Assembly (NCBI GenBank): GCA_016649835.1
Contig: JAENWX010000001.1
Location: 1-47,298, forward strand
Length of the DNA: 47,298 nt
Reading direction: 5' to 3'
DNA from: Minisyncoccota bacterium
Lineage (GTDB): Bacteria > Patescibacteriota > Minisyncoccia > Phycocordibacterales > UBA9973
The position numbers and the translations under genes are program-made. Each line of letters begins with the position of its first letter. Position 1 is the first letter of the stretch. Below, one piece after another: positions 2,623 to 40,437 of this stretch. The notes under the pieces are model-generated. The model had not been told where the DNA came from. It did no database searches and saw only the letters and a list, made by a program, of their open reading frames with translations.

Positions 2623-5600
2623 ATGCAAAATTACGATCATATAAAAATTGAAAAAAAATGGCAAAAAGAGTGGAGTAAAAATGAAATATACAAAACCTTA
2701 AATAAAGGTAAAAAAATGTATGTACTCGACATGTTCCCATATCCTTCTGGCGTGGGTCTTCATGTTGGCCACCCACGTGGCTATATAGGTAGTGATGTAT
2801 ATGCTCGTATGAAAAGAATGGAGGGTTTTAATGTGCTCCATCCTATGGGTTATGATGCTTTTGGTTTACCCGCAGAACAATATGCATTACAGCATAAAAT
2901 ACACCCTAAAAAAGCCGTAGATGAAAATGTAAAAACTTTTGAAAGACAGCTTTCTATTATTGGGCTTTCTTATGATTGGACTCGTAAGGTCAATACAACC
3001 GACCCAAAATATTATAAATGGACACAATGGATATTCCTTCAAATTTATAATTCTTGGTATGATAAAACTCAAAATAAAGCTCGTCCTATTTCAGAGCTTG
3101 AAAGTCTATTTGAAAAGAATGGTAATGAAAAAATAAATGCCGAATGTAACTCAGACACAGAATTTTTTTCATCAAAAGAGTGGAAGTTATTTTCTAAAAT
3201 AGAAAAACACAACATACTCATGCAATACCGTCTTGCTTATGAAGGACACAGTGAAGTAAATTGGTGTGAAGAAATGGGAACTGTTCTCGCTAATGATGAA
3301 ATAACAAACGACAAAAATGGTAACCCCGTTTCAGAGAGAGGAGGATTCCCGGTTATAAAAAAATCCATGCGCCAATGGTTCATGCGAATTACAGCTTATG
3401 CAGACAGGCTGCTTTCTGGTCTTGATGGATTGGAATGGAGTGACCATATAAAAGAAATTCAAAAGAACTGGATAGGAAAGAGTGATGGTAGTGAAATAGA
3501 ATTTAAGATTCGAGTCCCTGGAAAGTTTTCTTCAGGTCCTCGCCTGCCCGACCTTGCGGTTGTTCGGGCGGGGACGAGGGAGGACGAGGGGCCAGACCAT
3601 TCAGAAAATTTTTCCAGAGACTCTCTTTCTATAAAAGTTTTTACAACCCGCGCAGATACTATTTTTGGTGCGACTTATGTAGTTCTGGCGCCGGAACATC
3701 CATTAATTAATAATTACAAATTACTAATTACTAATTGGAGAGAGATAGAAGAATATATTAATGAAATAAAAAATAAGACCGATGAAGACAGAGTAAAAAA
3801 TGATAAAGAAAAAACAGGAGTAGAACTAAAAGGTATCAAAGCTATCAATCCCGCAAACGGAGAAGAGGTACCAGTTTGGATAGCTGACTACGTGCTTGCT
3901 ACTTATGGGACAGGAGCTGTTATGGCTGTGCCTGCACATGATGAAAGAGATTTTGAATTTGCGAATAAGTATGATTTGGCACTCAAGCAGGTTGTTGTTT
4001 CTAATAATTTATTAAAATCAATAGTTGTAAGTACAACCTTGGATAACGATATTGATTTTAAGTATCAGTTACAAAAAAGTAAAATTGACTTTACTTTATC
4101 AATAAGTTCAATAAGCAATCGCGAGCATATTAGAGTTGAATTAAAAAAAGAAAATCTTCAAGAGTTTATTAATATTGTACAGAAATATATAAAAGAAAAA
4201 TGTTGGGTTGAGATACTTGGAAATGAAAATATAATTGTACTTAAAAACGAAGTTCATAAAGATTTTCTGAATCACTCAGAAGAGTGGTTTAAGAAATTTT
4301 TAGAATGGGAACCTTTTATTAAAGGACAGAAAAATTTATGGGATATGCTTTCTAAAAATACTTTTTTTCAAAATTTAGTTTGTTATCAAGATGATGGAAT
4401 ATTAACTAATTCAGGAAAATTTAATGGTTTAACTTCCGAAGAAGCCCGCGCACAAATTACGAAATTTGTAAATGGAAAAATAGTTACAAAATTTAAAATG
4501 AGAGATGCAATATTTGCTCGTCAAAGATATTGGGGTGAGCCAATTCCACTTAAACATAACCCAGATGGAACAACAACAGAAGTAAAAGAAAAAAATCTTC
4601 CTTTAGAATTACCAAACATTAAATCTTATGTTTCAACTGGTACAGGTGAGTCTCCACTTGCAGGAGTTAAGTCTTGGGTGAAGGAAGGCTATGAGACAAA
4701 CACAATGCCTGGATGGGCTGGGTCTTCTTGGTACTTCTTGCGTTATATGGATCCTCAGAATAGTAAAGCTTTTGCGTCTAAAAAATCTCTTGAGTACTGG
4801 AAAGATGTAGATGTGTATGTTGGCGGACTCGAGCATGCTACTGGGCATTTACTCTACTCTCGTTTTTGGAATAATTTCTTATTTGATTTAGGTCATGTTC
4901 CAACAAGAGAACCATTTAAAAAACTTAGAAATCAAGGAATGATTTTGGCTAGTGATGGACGTAAAATGAGTAAAAGATGGAATAATGTAGTAAACCCAGA
5001 TGACATAGTAAAAAACTATGGAGCAGATACTTTGCGTATATATGAAATGTTCATGGGACCATTTGAACAAAGCCTACCATGGTCTACAGAAAGCATTATT
5101 GGCTCACGAAGATTTATAGACCGCGTCTTTAGACTTCAATCTAAAGTTACAAATAAAAAAAGTGACATAGAAGTAGAAAAAATTTTTCACAAAACACTTA
5201 AAAAGGTTAGTGAAGATATAGAAAATTTTGCTTTCAATACGGCAGTTTCTTCAATGATGATTTTATTAAATGAAATAGAAAAGTTTGAAAATATTGGAAA
5301 AGCTGAGTTTAAAATTTTATTACAGATGTTAGCTCCTTTCGCTCCTCACGTAACAGAAGAACTTTGGTCTAATACAGGAGAAAAGAAATCCATCCATAAA
5401 AGTTCTTGGCCTAAATGGGACAAAAATAAAATTGTTGATGATATGATTAAAATTGCTGTTCAAGTAAATGGTAAAGTAAGAACAGAAATTATGATATCAA
5501 AAGATATGTCAGAATCTGAAATTAAAGAAATGGCGCTAAAAGATAAAAATATTTTAACCTGGACAGAAGGAAAAGAAATAAAAAGAGTTATATATGTTCC

Positions 5601-26380: not shown

Positions 26381-28573
26381 CTACGCCTTCGGCCACTTCT
26401 CAACAATTAATAATCTCTTATTTTCAACTGCCCCGCCTGCAGAAGCATTTCGGGCAGGCATCATGCCCCATATTTCTTCTGTAACAAAAGGCATAAATGG
26501 ATGAAGAATTTTTATAGATTTTTCTAAAATTTCAACCAACAAAGTTTGTCTTGATTGCTTTGCTTTTTCATCGTCACCAGCAATAATTGGTTTACTTTCC
26601 TCTATAATTTTATCAGCAAATTTATCCCATATGTAATGATATATTTTTTCAGATGCCATATAAAAACGAAAGTTTTCCATATCATTAGTTATATCTTTAA
26701 TTTCAGTATCAAGTTCACCCATTATATTTCTATCAATTTCATTTAGTTCTGATTTATGAAATTTTTCTGGAATATTAGAAAATACAAATCTTGATATGTT
26801 CCATAATTTATTTGCAAAATTTTTATATCCTTTAATTCTATCTCTTGAAAGGGCAAGATCCATTCCAGGAGTATTTCCAACCACAAGTGCTATTCGCAGT
26901 GCGTCTGCTCCAAAAATATCAATAAGTTCTACAGGATTAACAACGTTACCTTTTGATTTACTCATTTTTTCTCCCTTCTCATCATTTACTAATCCATGGA
27001 GATAAACATTTTGAAAGGCGACTTCGTTGCGTAAATATAATCCAAAAATAACCATTCTTGGTATCCATTTAAAAATTAGGTCTCGGCCTGTTTCCATCAC
27101 ACTAGTAGGATGATATATATCTAAATCTTTTGTATTAGGGTATCCAAGAGAAAGAAGTGTCCATTGTCCAGAAGAGAACCATGTATCAAATGTATCAGTA
27201 TCTTTTCTGAGTTCTCCTCCACAATCACATTTTTTTAATTCATTGTTTAAATCAGAAAATCCTTTTTTGCAAACATTACATATTTTAGCTGGAATAGGAA
27301 TACCCCAGACAATCTGCCTTGATATATTCCAGTCAATAGTATTTGTCATCCAATATCTAAAAATTTTTTCATAATTTTCTGGATAGAATTTTATTTTGCC
27401 ACTATTTACAGCATCTAGTGCTCGGTCTGCAAGAGGTCTCATTTTAACAAACCACTGGTCTTTAATTTGTGGTTCTATAATAGTGTTACATTTAAAACAC
27501 ACTTTTACATTGTGTTTATAAGATTCATCTATTTTAACTAAAAGTCCTTTTTCTTTTAACTTTTCAACAATCATGGGTCTTGCTTTAGAAATGTGAATTC
27601 CTTCAAATTCTCCAGATATAGCCAGTAGTTTTCCTTTCCAGTCTATTATTTGCTCCTTTTCTAGGTTGTGTCTTTCTGCTATCTCAAAGTCAACTTGGTC
27701 GTGCCATGGAGTTATGGTCATAACTCCTGTTCCAAATTCCATATCAACACTTTCATCTTTTATTATTGTTGCAGTAATGGGACCATTTATCCATTCCAGT
27801 TCTATTTTTTGACCATCTTTATATTCCTCGTATCTTTTATCTTTTGGATGCATTACTACGTATTTATCTCCGAATTTTGTTTCAGGACGAGAAGTACTTA
27901 TTACAAAAGGACCATATTGAAGATAATAAAATTGTTCAGTTCGTTCTTCAAATTCAGTTTCAACTTCAGAAAGGGAAGTCTGATGTTTGGCACACCAGTT
28001 TACGATACGGTCACCACGATAGATTAATCCATCTTTAAACATTTTGTCAAAAGTTTCTTGAACGGTTTTTACTATTTCTGGGTCCAGTGTAAATTTTTCT
28101 CTTGACCAGTCACAAGATGCTCCAAGTCTACGAATATCATCTTCCATGAATTTTTTATTAGAAATAGTAAAATCATATATTTCTTTATATAAATCTTCTG
28201 GTGTCATTTCAAATCTAGAACGGCCTTCTTTTTCTAATTTACGTTCATAAACAATTTGAGTTTCAAATCCAGCGTGGTCGGCTCCCGGTACCCATAGAGT
28301 ACGTTCACCTTTCATTCGATGATATCTTGTCATTATGTCTTCAAGTGTTACGAAAAGTGCATGTCCAGCATGTAGTCGTCCGTTTGCATTTGGTGGAGGC
28401 ATTACTATTGTGAAAGGTTTTGCTTCTTTATCTGTCACACCTTTTTCAATACAAATATCTGGATTAAAATATCCACTTTCTTCCCATAGTTTGTAAATAC
28501 GATCCTCTGTTTCTTTGGGGTCATATGGTTTTAAAAATTTCGGGTTTATGTTATTGTTCTGGTCATTATTCAT
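26381..28573 (-). CDS. valS: Valine--tRNA ligase (short form, no C-terminal coiled coil)
   Basis: 730 aa. PPPNANGRLHAGHAL, KMSKSKGN, and a Cys-rich insertion (CNVCKK...CDCGG). Confidence 0.9.
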   Translation of the reverse strand: MNNDQNNNINPKFLKPYDPKETEDRIYKLWEESGYFNPDICIEKGVTDKEAKPFTIVMPPPNANGRLHAGHALFVTLEDIMTRYHRMKGERTLWVPGADHAGFETQIVYERKLEKEGRSRFEMTPEDLYKEIYDFTISNKKFMEDDIRRLGASCDWSREKFTLDPEIVKTVQETFDKMFKDGLIYRGDRIVNWCAKHQTSLSEVETEFEERTEQFYYLQYGPFVISTSRPETKFGDKYVVMHPKDKRYEEYKDGQKIELEWINGPITATIIKDESVDMEFGTGVMTITPWHDQVDFEIAERHNLEKEQIIDWKGKLLAISGEFEGIHISKARPMIVEKLKEKGLLVKIDESYKHNVKVCFKCNTIIEPQIKDQWFVKMRPLADRALDAVNSGKIKFYPENYEKIFRYWMTNTIDWNISRQIVWGIPIPAKICNVCKKGFSDLNNELKKCDCGGELRKDTDTFDTWFSSGQWTLLSLGYPNTKDLDIYHPTSVMETGRDLIFKWIPRMVIFGLYLRNEVAFQNVYLHGLVNDEKGEKMSKSKGNVVNPVELIDIFGADALRIALVVGNTPGMDLALSRDRIKGYKNFANKLWNISRFVFSNIPEKFHKSELNEIDRNIMGELDTEIKDITNDMENFRFYMASEKIYHYIWDKFADKIIEESKPIIAGDDEKAKQSRQTLLVEILEKSIKILHPFMPFVTEEIWGMMPARNASAGGAVENKRLLIVEKWPKA
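26432..26458 (-). repeat. CCTGCC...GGCGGG hairpin element in valS (sense orientation, in frame)
   Basis: Minus strand: GCCTGCCCGAAATGCTTCTGCAGGCGGGG, encoding MPARNASAGGA near the C-terminus. Confidence 0.65.
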
Positions 28574-28733: not shown

Positions 28734-30086
28734 TTATAAGGATAAATTTCCTTGTGCCTTTATTGAATTTATGTTTTTTACTATTTTATTATTTTGATAT
28801 TGAAAGTATCCTGCAATAGCAATCATAAGAGCATTGTCACCAGTTAAATTTTTGGAAGGAAAATGAACATTGGTTTTAAGTTTGTCTGCCGATGAGGCAC
28901 GATTATTTTCTTTAATTTTTTCTATTATTGTTGTTTGTAAATGTTTATTTGCAGAAACACCGCCACCTACTATCAATGTATTTATTTTATATTGCTTTAT
29001 TGCCTTAATGGTTTTATGAGTAAGCACCTCTACAACAGAGTCTTCAAATTCTCTTGCTATTTTTTGTTTAATATTACCTTTTTCTAAAATATTTGGATTT
29101 TTTTCTTTTAAATCTCTTATCAAATATAGCACCGCTGTCTTTAGTCCAGAAAATGAAAAATCATAATCCTTAGAATATATCATTGGTCTAGGTAATTTAA
29201 TTTGCTCCAGAGTATTATCTGATTTTTCAGGTCCTCGGATGAGGGAGGACGAGGTGCCAGACCGTGAAAAATCAGACAATACTCTTCCGCTTACGTTTTC
29301 TCTTTCAATATTAGCTATCTTTGAAATCTCTGGTCCTCCAGGGTATGGTAGTCCCAGCATGCGAGCTACTTTATCAAAAGCTTCTCCTGCTGCATCGTCG
29401 CGAGTTTGTCCTATTTTTTTATATTTCATCCAGTCTTTTATTAGTATCAGTTCTGTGTGTCCTCCTGAAACCAAAAGAGAGAGCATTGGGAAAATAATTT
29501 CTTTCTCACTAATTGTGAAAGTTTTTTCTTTTTTAGGAAATATAGAAAAAATATGACCTTCCATGTGGTTTACTTTTACTATTGGAATATTCCAGTAAAT
29601 ACTTAATGCCTTAGCAAAACTAATTCCCACCCAAAGAGCAGGGACCAACCCTGGTCCTGTTGTTACAGCAATAGCATCTATGTTGGGTTTTTTAATAAAT
29701 GGAATATGTTTAGGCCATAGTTCTTTGAGCTCTGTTTCTCTCTCTAGAATTTTATCAATTTTTTTAAAATCTTTGTCAGTATATAATGCTGTTTTATTTT
29801 TTTTGTATAGTTTTGCTTCTTTTAGTACTTTTTCTAAAATATTTATTATATTTTTCCCGTGTTCACGCTTGGCCATCATGGGGAAAACACCACCATATTC
29901 AGCGTGTATAGCTATTTGTGAAGACAAATCATTACCAAGAATTTTAAATTTAGTTTTAGATCCAGATTGATGTACTTCTATTACAGCAAGAGCCGTCTCA
30001 TCACAGGATGTCTCTATGGCCAATATTTTCATCCCAGTACTAAAATTTTTAATATTTATTTTTACTTTTTTAATATTTTTATTCAT
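28734..30086 (-). CDS. tsaD: tRNA N6-adenosine threonylcarbamoyltransferase TsaD
   Basis: 450 aa. ILAIETSCDETALAV, HMEGHIF, SGGHTEL, DFSFSGLKTAV. The true start may be the internal MKILAIE (30032). Confidence 0.9.
   Translation of the reverse strand: MNKNIKKVKINIKNFSTGMKILAIETSCDETALAVIEVHQSGSKTKFKILGNDLSSQIAIHAEYGGVFPMMAKREHGKNIINILEKVLKEAKLYKKNKTALYTDKDFKKIDKILERETELKELWPKHIPFIKKPNIDAIAVTTGPGLVPALWVGISFAKALSIYWNIPIVKVNHMEGHIFSIFPKKEKTFTISEKEIIFPMLSLLVSGGHTELILIKDWMKYKKIGQTRDDAAGEAFDKVARMLGLPYPGGPEISKIANIERENVSGRVLSDFSRSGTSSSLIRGPEKSDNTLEQIKLPRPMIYSKDYDFSFSGLKTAVLYLIRDLKEKNPNILEKGNIKQKIAREFEDSVVEVLTHKTIKAIKQYKINTLIVGGGVSANKHLQTTIIEKIKENNRASSADKLKTNVHFPSKNLTGDNALMIAIAGYFQYQNNKIVKNINSIKAQGNLSL
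29218..29276. repeat. GC-rich palindromic element, copy 3, in frame (antisense orientation) inside tsaD
   Basis: Core GTCCTCGGATGAGGGAGGACGAGGTGCCAGACC (29231-29263), flanked by a perfect inverted repeat TCTGATTTTTCA / TGAAAAATCAGA. Encodes ...SGTSSSLIRGPEKSD... inside an insertion before LPRPM. Confidence 0.8.
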
Positions 30087-30790: not shown

Positions 30791-32221
30791 ATGAAAATAT
30801 TAAATGAAGTAATAGATAATATAAAAATAATAGAAATTCACGGTAATCTAGAAACTCGTGTTTCTTCTATATCTTTAAATTCTAAAAATATTGAACCCCG
30901 CTCAGTCTTTGTAGCGCTAGAGGGTAATATTATAGATGGACATGTTTTTATTGATGAAGTTATAGAAAAGGGAGCTACTGCAATAGTCTACGAGCATGGT
31001 CCAATTGAATTTAAAAATGGCATAACTTATATAAAAGTAGCAGATACACATAGTGCTGCTGGTATTATGGCTGGTAATTTTTATGGGAATCCATCTCGTA
31101 AATTAAAATTAGTGGGTATTACAGGAACAAATGGAAAGACAACTACCGCCACACTTCTACATCAGTTATTTAGAGATTTGGGTCATAAAGTTGGAATGAT
31201 TGGTACGATTGTAAATAAAATAAACGATGAATCATATGAGGCAGTTAGAACAACCCCAGATCCTATAAACCTAAATAGACTACTCGCAGAAATGGTAGAC
31301 CATGGCTGTGAATATTGTTTTATGGAAGTTTCGTCGCATTCTGTTTGTGAAAAAAGAATAGAAGGACTTTCTTTCTTTGGAGGAATTTTTACAAATCTTA
31401 CATTAGACCATTTAGACTATCATAAAACATTAGAAAATTATTGTGATGCTAAAAAAAGATTTTTTGATATGTTACCTGTGTCTGGTTTTGCAATTGCAAA
31501 TATAGATGATGACAAAGGGGAGTATATGCTAAGTCATACAAAGGCCCAGAAATATACTCTTAGCTTGAAAAAAGATGCAGATTTTAATCAAAGATTTGAA
31601 AGTAAACTTATTGGTGAATTTAACGCATATAATATTTTAGGAGTTTATGCGGTTGCAGTTTTACTTTTATATGGAGATAAACCTGCCCGACTTGATAGTC
31701 ATTCAGGCGGGGATAAAGTAAAAGAAGCTATAAAAAACTTAGAAGCAGTGTCAGGAAGATTTCAGTCTATAAAATCAGAAGATGAAGTTACTGGTATTGT
31801 AGACTATGCGCATACTCCAGATGCGTTAGAAAATGTTTTAAAAACAATAAATGAAATTAAAAGCTTAAATAAAGTAATATCTGTTATTGGTTGTGGGGGA
31901 GACCGAGATAAAACCAAGCGCCCAATAATGGCTCGCATCGGTTATGAAATGAGTGACTTTCTAATCATCACATCAGATAATCCACGTGGAGAATTACCGG
32001 AAGACATTTTGAATGATATGCAAAAAGGATTACCGGCTGAAAGTGAAAATAAAACTGAAATTATTATAGATAGACATGTTGCCATTGCTAGAGCCTGCAG
32101 TATTGCGCAAAAAGGAGATTATATTTTAATAGCAGGTAAGGGCCATGAAAAATATCAAGAAGTGAAAGGATTAAAAACTTATTTTGATGACATGGAAGAG
32201 TTAGAAAAATACTTGCTCTAA
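30791..32221 (+). CDS. murE: UDP-N-acetylmuramoyl-L-alanyl-D-glutamate--2,6-diaminopimelate ligase
   Basis: 476 aa. GITGTNGKTTT, DYAHTPDAL, GCGGDRDKTKRP, ITSDNPRGE (DNPR motif). Confidence 0.9.
   Translation: MKILNEVIDNIKIIEIHGNLETRVSSISLNSKNIEPRSVFVALEGNIIDGHVFIDEVIEKGATAIVYEHGPIEFKNGITYIKVADTHSAAGIMAGNFYGNPSRKLKLVGITGTNGKTTTATLLHQLFRDLGHKVGMIGTIVNKINDESYEAVRTTPDPINLNRLLAEMVDHGCEYCFMEVSSHSVCEKRIEGLSFFGGIFTNLTLDHLDYHKTLENYCDAKKRFFDMLPVSGFAIANIDDDKGEYMLSHTKAQKYTLSLKKDADFNQRFESKLIGEFNAYNILGVYAVAVLLLYGDKPARLDSHSGGDKVKEAIKNLEAVSGRFQSIKSEDEVTGIVDYAHTPDALENVLKTINEIKSLNKVISVIGCGGDRDKTKRPIMARIGYEMSDFLIITSDNPRGELPEDILNDMQKGLPAESENKTEIIIDRHVAIARACSIAQKGDYILIAGKGHEKYQEVKGLKTYFDDMEELEKYLL
31682..31711 (+). 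repeat. CCTGCC...GGCGGG hairpin element in murE (sense, in frame)
   Basis: CCTGCCCGACTTGATAGTCATTCAGGCGGG encodes PARLDSHSGG inside LLLYGDK...DKVKEAI. Confidence 0.65.
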
Positions 32222-32251
32222 TTAAGAATTAATAATTACGAATTAAGAATT
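32219..32251. repeat. AATTAAG/AATTACG heptamer repeats between murE and murD
   Basis: TAATTAAGAATTAATAATTACGAATTAAGAATT, starting in the murE stop codon. Confidence 0.7.
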
Positions 32252-32259
32252 TAAAAAAA

Positions 32260-33723
32260 ATGACGGGATACAAACAACTATTTAAAGGAAAGAAAATCAC
32301 AGTCATGGGTTTGGGCATCCTCGGTCGCGGATTAGGTTATACAAAATTTTTAGCAGAATGCGGAGCAGACTTAATAGTTACCGACTTAAAAACAAAAGAG
32401 CAACTTAAGTCTTCAGTAGAAGAAATTAAGAATTACGAATTAAGAATTAAGAATAAAAAGAAAATTAAATTTGTATTAGGAGAACATAGACTCGAGGATT
32501 TTAGAGATAGAGATATGATTATAAAGGCGGCTGGCGTTCCTTTTGATTCTATCTATATAAATGAAGCTCAAAAAAACAATATTCCCATTGAAATGGATGT
32601 ATCTCTTTTTTCAAAATGCGCGCCTGGCGTGATGCTTATTGGCGTAACAGGTACAAGGGGTAAATCAATGACCACTACACTTATATATGAGATATTGAAA
32701 GCCAATGAAAAATTATTAAAAAATAATGCTTGCCCGACTGGGAATTCTTTTAGGCGGGTTTATGTTGGTGGTAATTTAAGAGGCATGGCAACATTGCCAC
32801 TGCTGAAAAAAGTAAAAAGTCGCGCTTCAATGGACACTGCGCGAATGAGCCCCCAGGATGATTTTGGTAAATCATCTGCAGAATCAGATATTTTGGTATG
32901 TGAATTAGATTCATGGCAACTACAAGGTTTTGGTGATTCTAAAATTTCTCCACATATCTCTGTATTCACTACATTTATGCCAGACCATATGAATTATTAT
33001 AAAAATTCTATGGAAAAATATTTTGACGATAAAGCAAATATTTTTAAATATCAAAACGGGAATGATGTTTTAATAATACGTCCAAATATGAAGAAATTAA
33101 TACCCAAAAATATCAAAAGTAAGTTAATTGTTATAAATAAAAAAGAGTTAGATGGTTGGAAATTTATTGTCCCAGGAGAGCATCAAAGGGAAAATCTGGC
33201 TTGTGCAGTTAAGGTTGCAGAACAATTAAATATTCCTATATCTAAAATTAAAAAAGTTGTAAGTGGCTTTAAAGGACTAGAAGGACGCTTAGAACTTTTG
33301 AAAGTTTACAAGGGAATTAAAATTTATAATGATAACAATGCAACGACGCCCGAAGCAACGGTTGCTGGAATAGAAGCATTGTCTTCCGCTAGGACTGTCC
33401 TAGCGGAGAAAAAAATAGTGTTGATTTGTGGAGGCGCAGATAAAAATTTATTGCTAGATAATTTAATTAAAAAAGTTAATCAGAATTGTAAATTTGTATC
33501 TCTAATATCTGGGAGTGGAACGAATAAATTTTTATCAAGTCACAAGTTAAAAGTTGAAAGTTATCAAGCTAAGGACTTGAAAGATGCAATTAAAAAAGCA
33601 TTAGAAAAAGCAAAAAAGGGAGATATAGTTTTGTTTTCTCCAGCCTTCGCATCTTTTGGAATGTTCAACAACGAATATGAGCGCAATGATTTGTTTATGA
33701 AAATAATTAAAAATTTAAAATAA
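32260..33723 (+). CDS. murD: UDP-N-acetylmuramoylalanine--D-glutamate ligase
   Basis: 487 aa. N-terminal GLGILGRG Rossmann motif, GVTGTRGKSMTT, ELDSWQL, NDNNATTPEA. Confidence 0.85.
   Translation: MTGYKQLFKGKKITVMGLGILGRGLGYTKFLAECGADLIVTDLKTKEQLKSSVEEIKNYELRIKNKKKIKFVLGEHRLEDFRDRDMIIKAAGVPFDSIYINEAQKNNIPIEMDVSLFSKCAPGVMLIGVTGTRGKSMTTTLIYEILKANEKLLKNNACPTGNSFRRVYVGGNLRGMATLPLLKKVKSRASMDTARMSPQDDFGKSSAESDILVCELDSWQLQGFGDSKISPHISVFTTFMPDHMNYYKNSMEKYFDDKANIFKYQNGNDVLIIRPNMKKLIPKNIKSKLIVINKKELDGWKFIVPGEHQRENLACAVKVAEQLNIPISKIKKVVSGFKGLEGRLELLKVYKGIKIYNDNNATTPEATVAGIEALSSARTVLAEKKIVLICGGADKNLLLDNLIKKVNQNCKFVSLISGSGTNKFLSSHKLKVESYQAKDLKDAIKKALEKAKKGDIVLFSPAFASFGMFNNEYERNDLFMKIIKNLK
32424..32454 (+). 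repeat. Heptamer repeat run in frame inside murD
   Basis: AATTAAG AATTACG AATTAAG AATTAAG AAT encodes IKNYELRIKN. Confidence 0.8.
32729..32758 (+). repeat. CTTGCC...GGCGGG hairpin element in murD (sense, in frame)
   Basis: CTTGCCCGACTGGGAATTCTTTTAGGCGGG encodes ACPTGNSFRRV. Confidence 0.6.
33385..33407 (+). repeat. Perfect 11-bp-arm palindrome inside murD
   Basis: TCCGCTAGGAC-t-GTCCTAGCGGA encodes SARTVLAE. Confidence 0.7.
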
Positions 33724-40364: not shown

Positions 40365-40437
40365 AATTACGAATTACGAATTAAAAATTAACCCAGTAGG
40401 TGATTTTACTAAATCAGAATTAAAGATAAAAAATTAA
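40365..40437. repeat. AATTACG/AATTAAA heptamers plus the short form of the 750-812 unit
   Basis: AATTACG AATTACG AATTAAA AATTAAC, then CCAGTAGGTGATTTTACTAAATCAGAATTAAAG. Confidence 0.7.

Follow-up and report, generated by a model that had tools for sequence, protein, structure and literature searches.

The closest described counterparts of the element considered here are the Rickettsia palindromic elements (RPEs), of which RPE-1 to RPE-10 are in-frame palindromic repeats of about 100-150 bp (Ogata et al. 2000, as summarised in PMC10969869). These short palindromes of a reduced, A/T-rich genome lie in frame in unrelated housekeeping genes, where read-through adds an extra surface peptide, and also between genes, and no transposase is known for them (PMC10969869). 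A comparable organization is seen in transposable elements of the miniature inverted-repeat type (MITEs) that fuse to open reading frames (ORFs), viz., Coxiella QMITE1 and intragenic ERIC/RU, which are small, non-autonomous, hairpin-forming and dispersed, with some copies in frame in genes (PMC5896051, PMC2759123, PMC10969869). What defines a classical MITE is the combination of conserved terminal inverted repeats with a target-site duplication and a parental insertion sequence. The GC clusters and byps of yeast mitochondria are GC-rich palindromic mini-elements that have spread in an A/T-rich genome and can sit in coding regions; byps belong to organelle genomes, and the ribosome skips them. 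Repetitive extragenic palindromic sequences (REPs) are extragenic and co-vary with the REP-associated tyrosine transposase (RAYT). At the level of replication, it is established that template switching between inverted repeats can make their arms alike and invert the spacer (PMC8604942, PMC7202029). Here we describe a palindromic insert in the tsaD gene of an ultra-small bacterium of the candidate phyla radiation (CPR; Nomurabacteria/Paceibacteria), located in the 47,298-nucleotide contig JAENWX010000001.1 (hereinafter the window). It appears to share with the RPEs and the ORF-fusing MITEs the features listed above for them, and is likely to be one copy of a genus-wide, non-autonomous family of palindromic DNA repeats that is RPE/MITE-like and selfish.

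The tsaD insert comprises a GC-rich core lying antisense within the gene, through which the reading frame stays open, and two flanking arms (Table 1). A reading of the sequence by itself had singled out a perfect 12-bp inverted repeat around this core, which is indeed present (TCTGATTTTTCA, 29218-29229; TGAAAAATCAGA, 29265-29276) and has a chance expectation of ~0.009 per window for perfect 12-bp repeats at fixed spacing. The pairing is, however, longer than those 12 bp: it reaches outward to 29210 and 29284, with 19 of 20 bp formed between GAGTATTATCTGATTTTTCA (29210-29229) and TGAAAAATCAGACAATACTC (29265-29284), and a G29230:C29263 pair adjoins the core, so that each arm spans about 21 bp with one mismatch. 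This mismatch, A:C on the + strand, corresponds to G:U in the tsaD mRNA and is also seen in the closest allele (P0002, 83% identical). An 88-nt stretch folds with z = -6.1 relative to shuffles as RNA (mRNA strand) and -5.6 as DNA, and the end motif of other copies (GCTTCG-like, see below) is recognisable in it only loosely. The unit amounts to 75 nt or 25 codons; its antisense core reads (R)SGTSSSLIRG(P) within the peptide ...SDFSRSGTSSSLIRGPEKSD..., and the gene reads the whole element as RVLSDFSRSGTSSSLIRGPEKSDNT. The orientation opposite to a second copy in leuS, claimed in the same reading together with the open frame, also holds, as all three copies in the window carry the element on the + strand, with leuS being a + strand gene and tsaD a - strand gene.

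The product of this tsaD retains every conserved TsaD block, and the hairpin element codes for residues ~266-290. Residues 259 to 294-297 of the query match residues 187 to 193/194 of the chains in solved bacterial TsaDs (8iey; E. coli 4ydu), and thus a loop of ~6 residues in the solved structures is one of ~35 residues in the query, which substantiates the impression, given in the sequence-only reading, that this segment is unusually long. In an AlphaFold2 model (56 homologues; mean predicted local distance difference test score, pLDDT, 85; predicted template modelling score, pTM, 0.84) the pLDDT falls below 50 at residues 271-292, so that the model shows the insert as a disordered protrusion from an otherwise confidently predicted protein. 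These data strongly indicate that the 75-nt unit inserted into a short loop at the protein surface, corresponding to the stretch between residues 187 and 193 of E. coli TsaD. As its length is divisible by three and the frame used here has no stop, the unit is most likely read through, adding 25 disordered residues that the enzyme tolerates.

Searches of the whole genome recovered 20 copies by pattern and 25 by a covariance model that was built from 16 of the pattern-search copies. These come in two lengths, viz., a short form, whose core has 32 nt, and a long form, whose 62-nt core has a second GC hairpin (CCTGCCCGA...TCGGGCGG) nested behind GTCCTCG; the tsaD core differs at six positions from the corresponding part of the long leuS copy (3566-3597). 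Ten copies lie in long ORFs, including leuS, tsaD, an M1 aminopeptidase, uvrB-like, tgt-like, rnhB-like and murB-like genes, and others; seven of these are sense, three antisense, and the frame is open in all ten. Around the purine-rich centre, the constant junctions AG-GTCCTCGG and CCAGAC-CRT form a bulged stem extension, and a second family in the genome (GTCCTCGGATCTCCTCGCC...), along with relatives from a sister genus, combines the same junctions with a different centre. No gene was found split by an intergenic copy (0/10 in this genome). Some of the intergenic copies are positioned at gene ends between A and T runs, and a terminator role is possible for intergenic copies so flanked. The tsaD hairpin itself is followed by AUAAUACUCU and not by the U run of an intrinsic terminator. 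The proposal that the element is an ORF-colonising palindromic repeat is accordingly supported by dispersed copies, half of which lie in housekeeping genes that are unrelated to one another, with both orientations and several frames represented.

Table 1. Coordinates in the window of the tsaD element, its host gene, and related features
Feature	Coordinates	Strand	Description
Window	1-47298	+	contig C40 of a 735-kb genome (56 contigs, 32.5% GC)
tsaD	28734-30086	-	450-codon ORF; product with PF00814
Core of the tsaD element	29231-29262	+	GTCCTCGGATGAGGGAGGACGAGGTGCCAGAC; 32 nt, GC-rich, T variant (N position = T)
Left arm	29210-29230		GAGTATTATCTGATTTTTCAG; inner ~10 nt common to other copies, outer part copy-specific
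Right arm	29263-29284		CGTGAAAAATCAGACAATACTC; one A:C mismatch on the + strand, one bulged G
Approximate outer limits of the tsaD element	29204-29291		degenerate GCTTCG-like ends: GCTCCAG left, CTTCCGCT right
Intergenic copy	24-83 (core 38-69)	+	A-run/T-run arms; core differs from the tsaD core by one base
leuS copy	3522-3611	+	sense, long form; core 3536-3597, second GC hairpin ~3542-3571
CCTGCCCGA-type hairpin in valS	26417-26461	-	in frame near the ValS C-terminus; peptide MPARNASAGGAV
CCTGCCCGA-type hairpin in murE	31676-31720	+	in frame in MurE; peptide KPARLDSHSGGD

Beyond this genome, the covariance model detects the family in 52 of 61 species-level genomes of the genus, with 1-25 copies each, and none in the remaining nine. 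A comparable survey of 250 genomes from 190 genera of the class yielded matches only in the present genome, along with the weak, centre-swapped relatives from the sister genus. Scanning public genomes for the exact core returned 83 stretches with 80 further distinct copies, whose labels are Candidatus Nomurabacteria, Paceibacteria or Paceibacterota metagenome-assembled genomes, or third-party annotation (TPA) assemblies labelled Saccharibacteria. Of these 80, 38 are intergenic, and in ORFs with a minimum length of 150 aa 31 are sense and 11 antisense. Of the copies of the family, ~75% are co-oriented with transcription. A full-text literature search retrieved no account of such elements in CPR/Patescibacteria. 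With the 10 genic copies of this genome and 42 public ones, the family displays what typifies the RPEs, namely a multi-copy palindrome in frame in unrelated genes.

The long ORFs are kept open by every genic copy, 10/10 here and 42/42 public (52/52 in frame). The public genic copies use five of the six frames: +1 (SSDEGGRGAR) in 15, +2 (PR(T/M)REDE) in 10, +0 (VLGRGRTR) in 6, -1 (SGSSSSL(I/V)RG) in 9, and -2 (LAPRPPSSED) in 2; no genic copy uses frame -0, in which the hydrophobic VWLLVLP would be encoded. The core is polymorphic at GGAYGAGG, and the T form generates TGA in frame +0 only. This T variant is absent from the copies read in frame +0 (0/6 public, 0/1 here, where the tgt copy carries C), with 55% of copies elsewhere having T. 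The exclusion of the T variant and the avoidance of frame -0 suggest that the genic copies appear translated, as no such constraints would apply if they were spliced out or bypassed. Excision of the hairpin from the mRNA in the manner of an intron, or ribosome skipping as in T4 gene 60 or the Magnusiomyces mitochondrial byps, would have in its favor that a long stem brings both junctions together and that the byps of yeast mitochondria offer a parallel to GC-rich inserts in genes rich in A/T. We nevertheless regard non-translation as extremely improbable, given that 52/52 genic copies are in frame and stop-free, that the stop variant is kept out of frame +0 and frame -0 is avoided, and that no ribozyme or intron was matched: a whole-window Rfam search at the gathering threshold retrieved tRNAs only, and one of 29150-29350 at E<=10 gave just sub-threshold matches at chance level, none to a ribozyme or intron family. 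Thus, in contrast to the byps, the frame statistics of the present family point to read-through.

The sequence-only reading had further taken openness in both orientations and in different frames to be the hallmark of a sequence selected to lack stop codons. The openness stands, but the selection does not follow from it. The GGATGAGG version of the core found in this copy has the TGA in frame +0 and is hence open in five of six frames, not stop-free as had been expected from a six-frame translation; the 59- or 75-nt tsaD unit is open in three of six, and the GGACGAGG variant in all six. Openness in all six frames occurs in 19% of composition-matched shuffles as against 2% of the 32-mers of the window, indicating that it is mostly a matter of GC-rich composition, and we accordingly reject selection to lack stops as an explanation. 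Selection on stops is visible solely as the filter against the T variant in frame +0. Read either way round, the 75-nt unit has the same flanking peptide (VLSDFS...EKSDNT), and both orientations stay open because the arms form a palindrome.

The TsaD loop offers a view of how such copies come and go. Genomes of the genus include versions of the loop without the element, with 32-36 residues from PYPGG to PRPM; in G016 the element is present in the orientation seen here, in G017 it is a diverged and oppositely oriented copy, and unrelated GC-rich hairpin inserts also occur. Among the 120 closest TsaDs in a large protein collection, 110 could be classified: 14 loops hold the element antisense, 15 sense, and 7 sense with a nested insert, while 20 hold two other insert families, 19 are of other kinds, and 35 are short. 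A tree of these 110 proteins, made without the loop, requires a minimum of 58 changes in loop state, and near-identical proteins differ in it. The filled allele P0004 and the short-loop allele P0029 share 89% DNA identity and differ by exactly 72 nt; P0021 and P0049, which are 85% identical, also differ by 72 nt; and P0068, with the element antisense, and P0084, which has it sense plus a nested insert, are 94% identical but have unrelated arms. Certain short-loop alleles are demonstrably remnants: P0051 is 5'-truncated, leaving CCAAAC-CAT and the right arm, and P0098 retains a small palindrome resembling joined outer arms. Both orientations are also found at the same site, in TsaD as well as in the aminopeptidase. 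These allele comparisons show copies that have evidently been gained, lost, truncated, flipped, and replaced fast relative to protein divergence, and such very fast turnover on the TsaD tree weakens the idea of an ancient orthologous insert with a selected core. It had been reasoned earlier that the mobile-repeat idea would fail if no empty allele existed and if distant TsaDs shared the peptide; short-loop TsaDs occur both in congeners and among near-identical metagenomic alleles, and distant TsaDs, including those of solved structure, are devoid of the peptide, and hence neither holds. In some congeners (e.g., L009) the same loop contains a translated form (KLRIKNEKLRIK) of the AATTAAG/TTAAGAA heptad tandem repeats that occur between genes at 699-764 and 32209-32471 of the window, indicating that it collects several unrelated repeat types.

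The arms of the element differ from its core in being variable in sequence yet paired. They range from ~12 to 28 bp, are A/T-rich, and have middle parts that differ between copies. Of the arm cells in 32 distinct copies, 91.7% are paired, in comparison to 69% in shuffles and ~50% when partners are slid by 1-3 columns, and 124 cells are changed on both arm sides versus 40 in shuffles. The arm cells comprise 362 Watson-Crick pairs, 4 G:T and 8 A:C; there being no excess of G:T, which a selected RNA helix would tolerate as G:U, the arms behave as a DNA palindrome and not as an RNA fold. At the tsaD site of three species the inner ~10 nt are shared and the outer ~12 nt are all different, with pairing perfect or nearly so in each. 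In another genome the aminopeptidase copy has 17-bp perfect arms flanked by the direct motifs ACTTCGC...GCTTCGT; in the copy of the present genome ACGAAGC, which is inversely complementary to the right end, has replaced the left motif and extends the arms to 25 bp, a direct case of copying from one arm to the other.

As an end motif, many copies carry a GCTTCG-like sequence of 6 nt, which in the public copies (loci L067-L146) starts 26 nt before the core and at offset 20 (the 21st base) after it. It occurs in direct orientation on both sides at fixed distance in ~45% of copies; the background for the motif is 11% of random 45-nt windows. The same motif is found at all sites, and the net gain in the filled/short-loop pairs is 72 nt for a unit of 75 nt; the motif could be a preferred target, a duplication, or the true ends of the element. 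In the sense genic copies it reads TSQ... and ...ASF. Relative to the core, the two end motifs have exchanged sides in some copies, as is expected if the core flips between the arms. The unrelated genes murB, rnhB, tgt, and uvrB share arm sequence and GCTTCG-like ends at fixed distance.

From this organization we infer a mechanism in which the element would act as a DNA hairpin, with template switching between its arms at replication keeping them complementary, lengthening them, and inverting the core, and with a presumed trans-acting factor that reads the conserved junction and core moving the element. The likeness to template switching at quasipalindromes and inverted repeats extends to arm homogenisation, arm extension, and spacer inversion (PMC7202029, PMC8604942). 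Unlike the present family, however, that is a general replication error process, and it would cover the upkeep and flipping of the copies but not their dispersal.

In contrast to the arms, the core is close to invariant. At the shared sites compared, namely tsaD, tgt and aminopeptidase, plus uvrB and rnhB in other genomes, intact cores are 86-100% identical in their 22-nt 3' part, mostly 91-100%, with variation restricted to 2-3 positions; the partly decayed uvrB and rnhB copies of this genome have 82-86% in the same part. Third codon positions of the flanks at identical residues are 47-62% identical, with two near-identical genome pairs at 78-83%. An alternative reading of this pattern is that the core is a functional nucleic-acid module, either a binding site or a structured RNA/DNA signal, which sits on any stem that pairs and is under purifying selection; it might serve in processing, stability or termination, or as a protein landing pad, between genes and inside mRNAs. 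A near-invariant core across species whose flanking synonymous sites are near-saturated would fit such a module, as would the co-orientation of ~75% of copies with transcription, the intergenic copies at gene ends, and the very stable fold. However, its presence at tsaD flips between near-identical alleles, making it dispensable there; both orientations occur at one site; the arms do not tolerate G:U in the manner of RNA helices; the centre is swapped in the second family (family B) and in the sister genus, with the junctions alone kept; and there is no Rfam match, with nine genomes of the genus being free of the element. A CsrA-type GGA hairpin decoy was considered and rejected, as tblastn with CsrA and Hfq query sequences found no homologue in the genome. 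We hence deem a functional module quite unlikely. The turnover, the dispensability in near-identical alleles, the decayed copies (uvrB here; tsaD in G017), and the swappable centre together favor young copies of a mobile family as the source of the conservation.

As for what might move these copies, Y1/HUH transposases (PF01797) are encoded in 52 of the 61 genomes of the genus, with one gene in the window at ~20.4-20.7 kb. Their presence and that of the element show no association across the 61 genomes (odds ratio ~1.8; table 45/7/7/2): G015 and G065 have 5-6 Y1 genes and no copies of the element, and G057 has nine copies and no Y1 gene. A RAYT-like Y1/HUH enzyme, whose presence is independent of that of the element, was therefore discarded as the mobiliser. 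An autonomous parent was likewise rejected, as no gene of this genome lies between two junction motifs.

Several points weigh against the interpretation as a selfish, mobile family. Neither the Y1 comparison nor the search for junction pairs identified a transposase or other mobilising enzyme. Several of the above counts take in orthologous copies, and hence represent fewer independent events than the raw numbers. The genic copies appear to be translated as judged by their reading-frame statistics, and the contrast between core and flanks can be explained by fast turnover or by purifying selection on a nucleic-acid function. Finally, alignments of two pairs of alleles suggest that one arm consists, in its outer part, of sequence native to the gene: in P0004 versus P0029 the outer arm GATAATTCAC aligns gap-free to the native GAAAATTCAA, and in P0021 versus P0049 the outer AGCAAA aligns to the native AGTAAA, the native-looking arm being on the 5' (GTCCTCGG) side of the element in both. 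For these, an inverted duplication coupled to insertion fits at least as well as later growth of the arms.

This last point raises the alternative that the arms are built at insertion: a unit of ~55 nt (inner arms and core) would integrate, and snap-back or hairpin-primed synthesis would copy the adjacent flank in inverted form, resulting in an inverted target-site duplication made by a putative dedicated enzyme. The element would be the same, with a different mechanism of mobility. In addition to the native-looking 5' arms of the two pairs, this would account for outer arms that are unique at most genic sites around a common inner ~10 nt. The informative pairs are two only, though, with short matches in A/T-rich DNA; as some short alleles are remnants (P0051, P0098), the native-looking arm may itself be a left-over of the element; and the arms and end motifs shared by murB, rnhB, tgt, and uvrB indicate that long arms travel with it. 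For the last reason we rejected a wholly flank-derived origin of the arms as a general rule, retaining it as a minority mechanism, and consider that arms built at insertion are very unlikely to explain the family.

Taking the insert as a copy of a mobile palindromic family, it departs from each described kind. From the RPEs it is set apart by its length of 75-90 nt, its unrelated host phylum and confinement to one Paceibacteria genus, an invariant GC-rich centre with copy-specific and perfectly compensated arms, and its occurrence in both orientations with nested inserts and rapid gain and loss at one site; going by length and distribution, sequence homology to RPE-1 to RPE-10 is unlikely. In contrast to classical MITEs, the arm ends vary, what is conserved being the centre and inner junction instead of terminal inverted repeats; a target-site duplication is not clearly seen (72 nt net for a 75-nt unit); and no parent element or transposase was detected in the same genomes from junction pairs or Y1 genes. 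The element resembles REPs and bacterial interspersed mosaic elements (BIMEs) with their Y1-type RAYT in being a small GC-rich hairpin in genomes with Y1/HUH genes, but half of its copies are genic and Y1 presence does not follow it. The conserved centre, variable but compensated arms, small size, nesting, flipping, fast turnover at a hot-spot loop, and restriction to one CPR genus thus distinguish it from the known kinds. A more far-reaching interpretation, which we consider unlikely though worth stating, is that it represents a new class of structure-guided mobile DNA in CPR or, alternatively, that the core is a selected nucleic-acid signal. In the structure-guided version, the hairpin tip with its bulged GC-rich junction and core, rather than the ends of the element, would be what an enzyme recognises, and insertion or copying would turn the host flank into a stem by inverted target duplication. 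If true, the element would be a cassette that flips, takes nested insertions, and remodels surface loops of essential proteins.

Additional small repeats and inserts accompany these copies. The sister family B (AG-GTCCTCGG ... CCAGAC junctions; centre ATCTCCTCGCC...GGAAGCTCGG) is found on contigs C7, C8, C14, C22, C27, C30, and C31; it is mostly intergenic, and often has A-run/T-run arms like those of the intergenic copies of the main family. Another small GC-rich hairpin family has the form CCTGCCCGA - 12-15 nt - GGCGGGG, and includes the hairpin nested in the long form of the main element as well as the valS and murE copies of Table 1. Several cores, on contigs C14, C15, C22, C27, and C44, are cut at CCA|GAC by a mini-palindrome of ~27 nt (CCCAGTAGGTCATTCTACTGAATGA), words resembling which occur in the window at 740-764 and 40385-40403; hairpin tips thus seem to be targets of further small insertions. 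Contig C41 ends, directly after a copy of the element, with CTGTCTCTTATACACATCT (Nextera transposase adapter) in its last ~40 bases, which looks like adapter read-through kept in the assembly, with that copy artificially truncated. TsaD itself has a second, lineage-specific insertion at 29687-29806 (residues ~94-133; ~37 residues relative to solved structures), which is A/T-rich, helical in the model, and not a copy of the GC-rich repeat. Near its C-terminal part, a short GC-richer stretch at 28872-28910 (residues ~394-406, NNRASSADK) is not present in solved TsaDs and may be the remnant of another mini-insert.

These observations bear on how reduced genomes accommodate selfish DNA. The genomes in question are of ~0.7 Mb with almost no spare DNA, yet tsaD, leuS, uvrB, tgt, rnhB, and murB carry mobile hairpin cassettes, and in such essential genes their gain, loss, and flipping outpace the divergence of the proteins. 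If, as is likely, the insert belongs to a selfish family, it would constitute a second, independent natural system, after that of Rickettsia, in which selfish DNA makes new protein loops, and the element would mark the insertion-tolerant loops of conserved enzymes. It would also furnish a clear-cut natural case in which a palindrome is kept perfect by template switching, and points to a putative hairpin-recognising activity in CPR bacteria. At a practical level, the inserts inflate the apparent divergence of proteins and can mislead gene annotation and phylogeny in the CPR.

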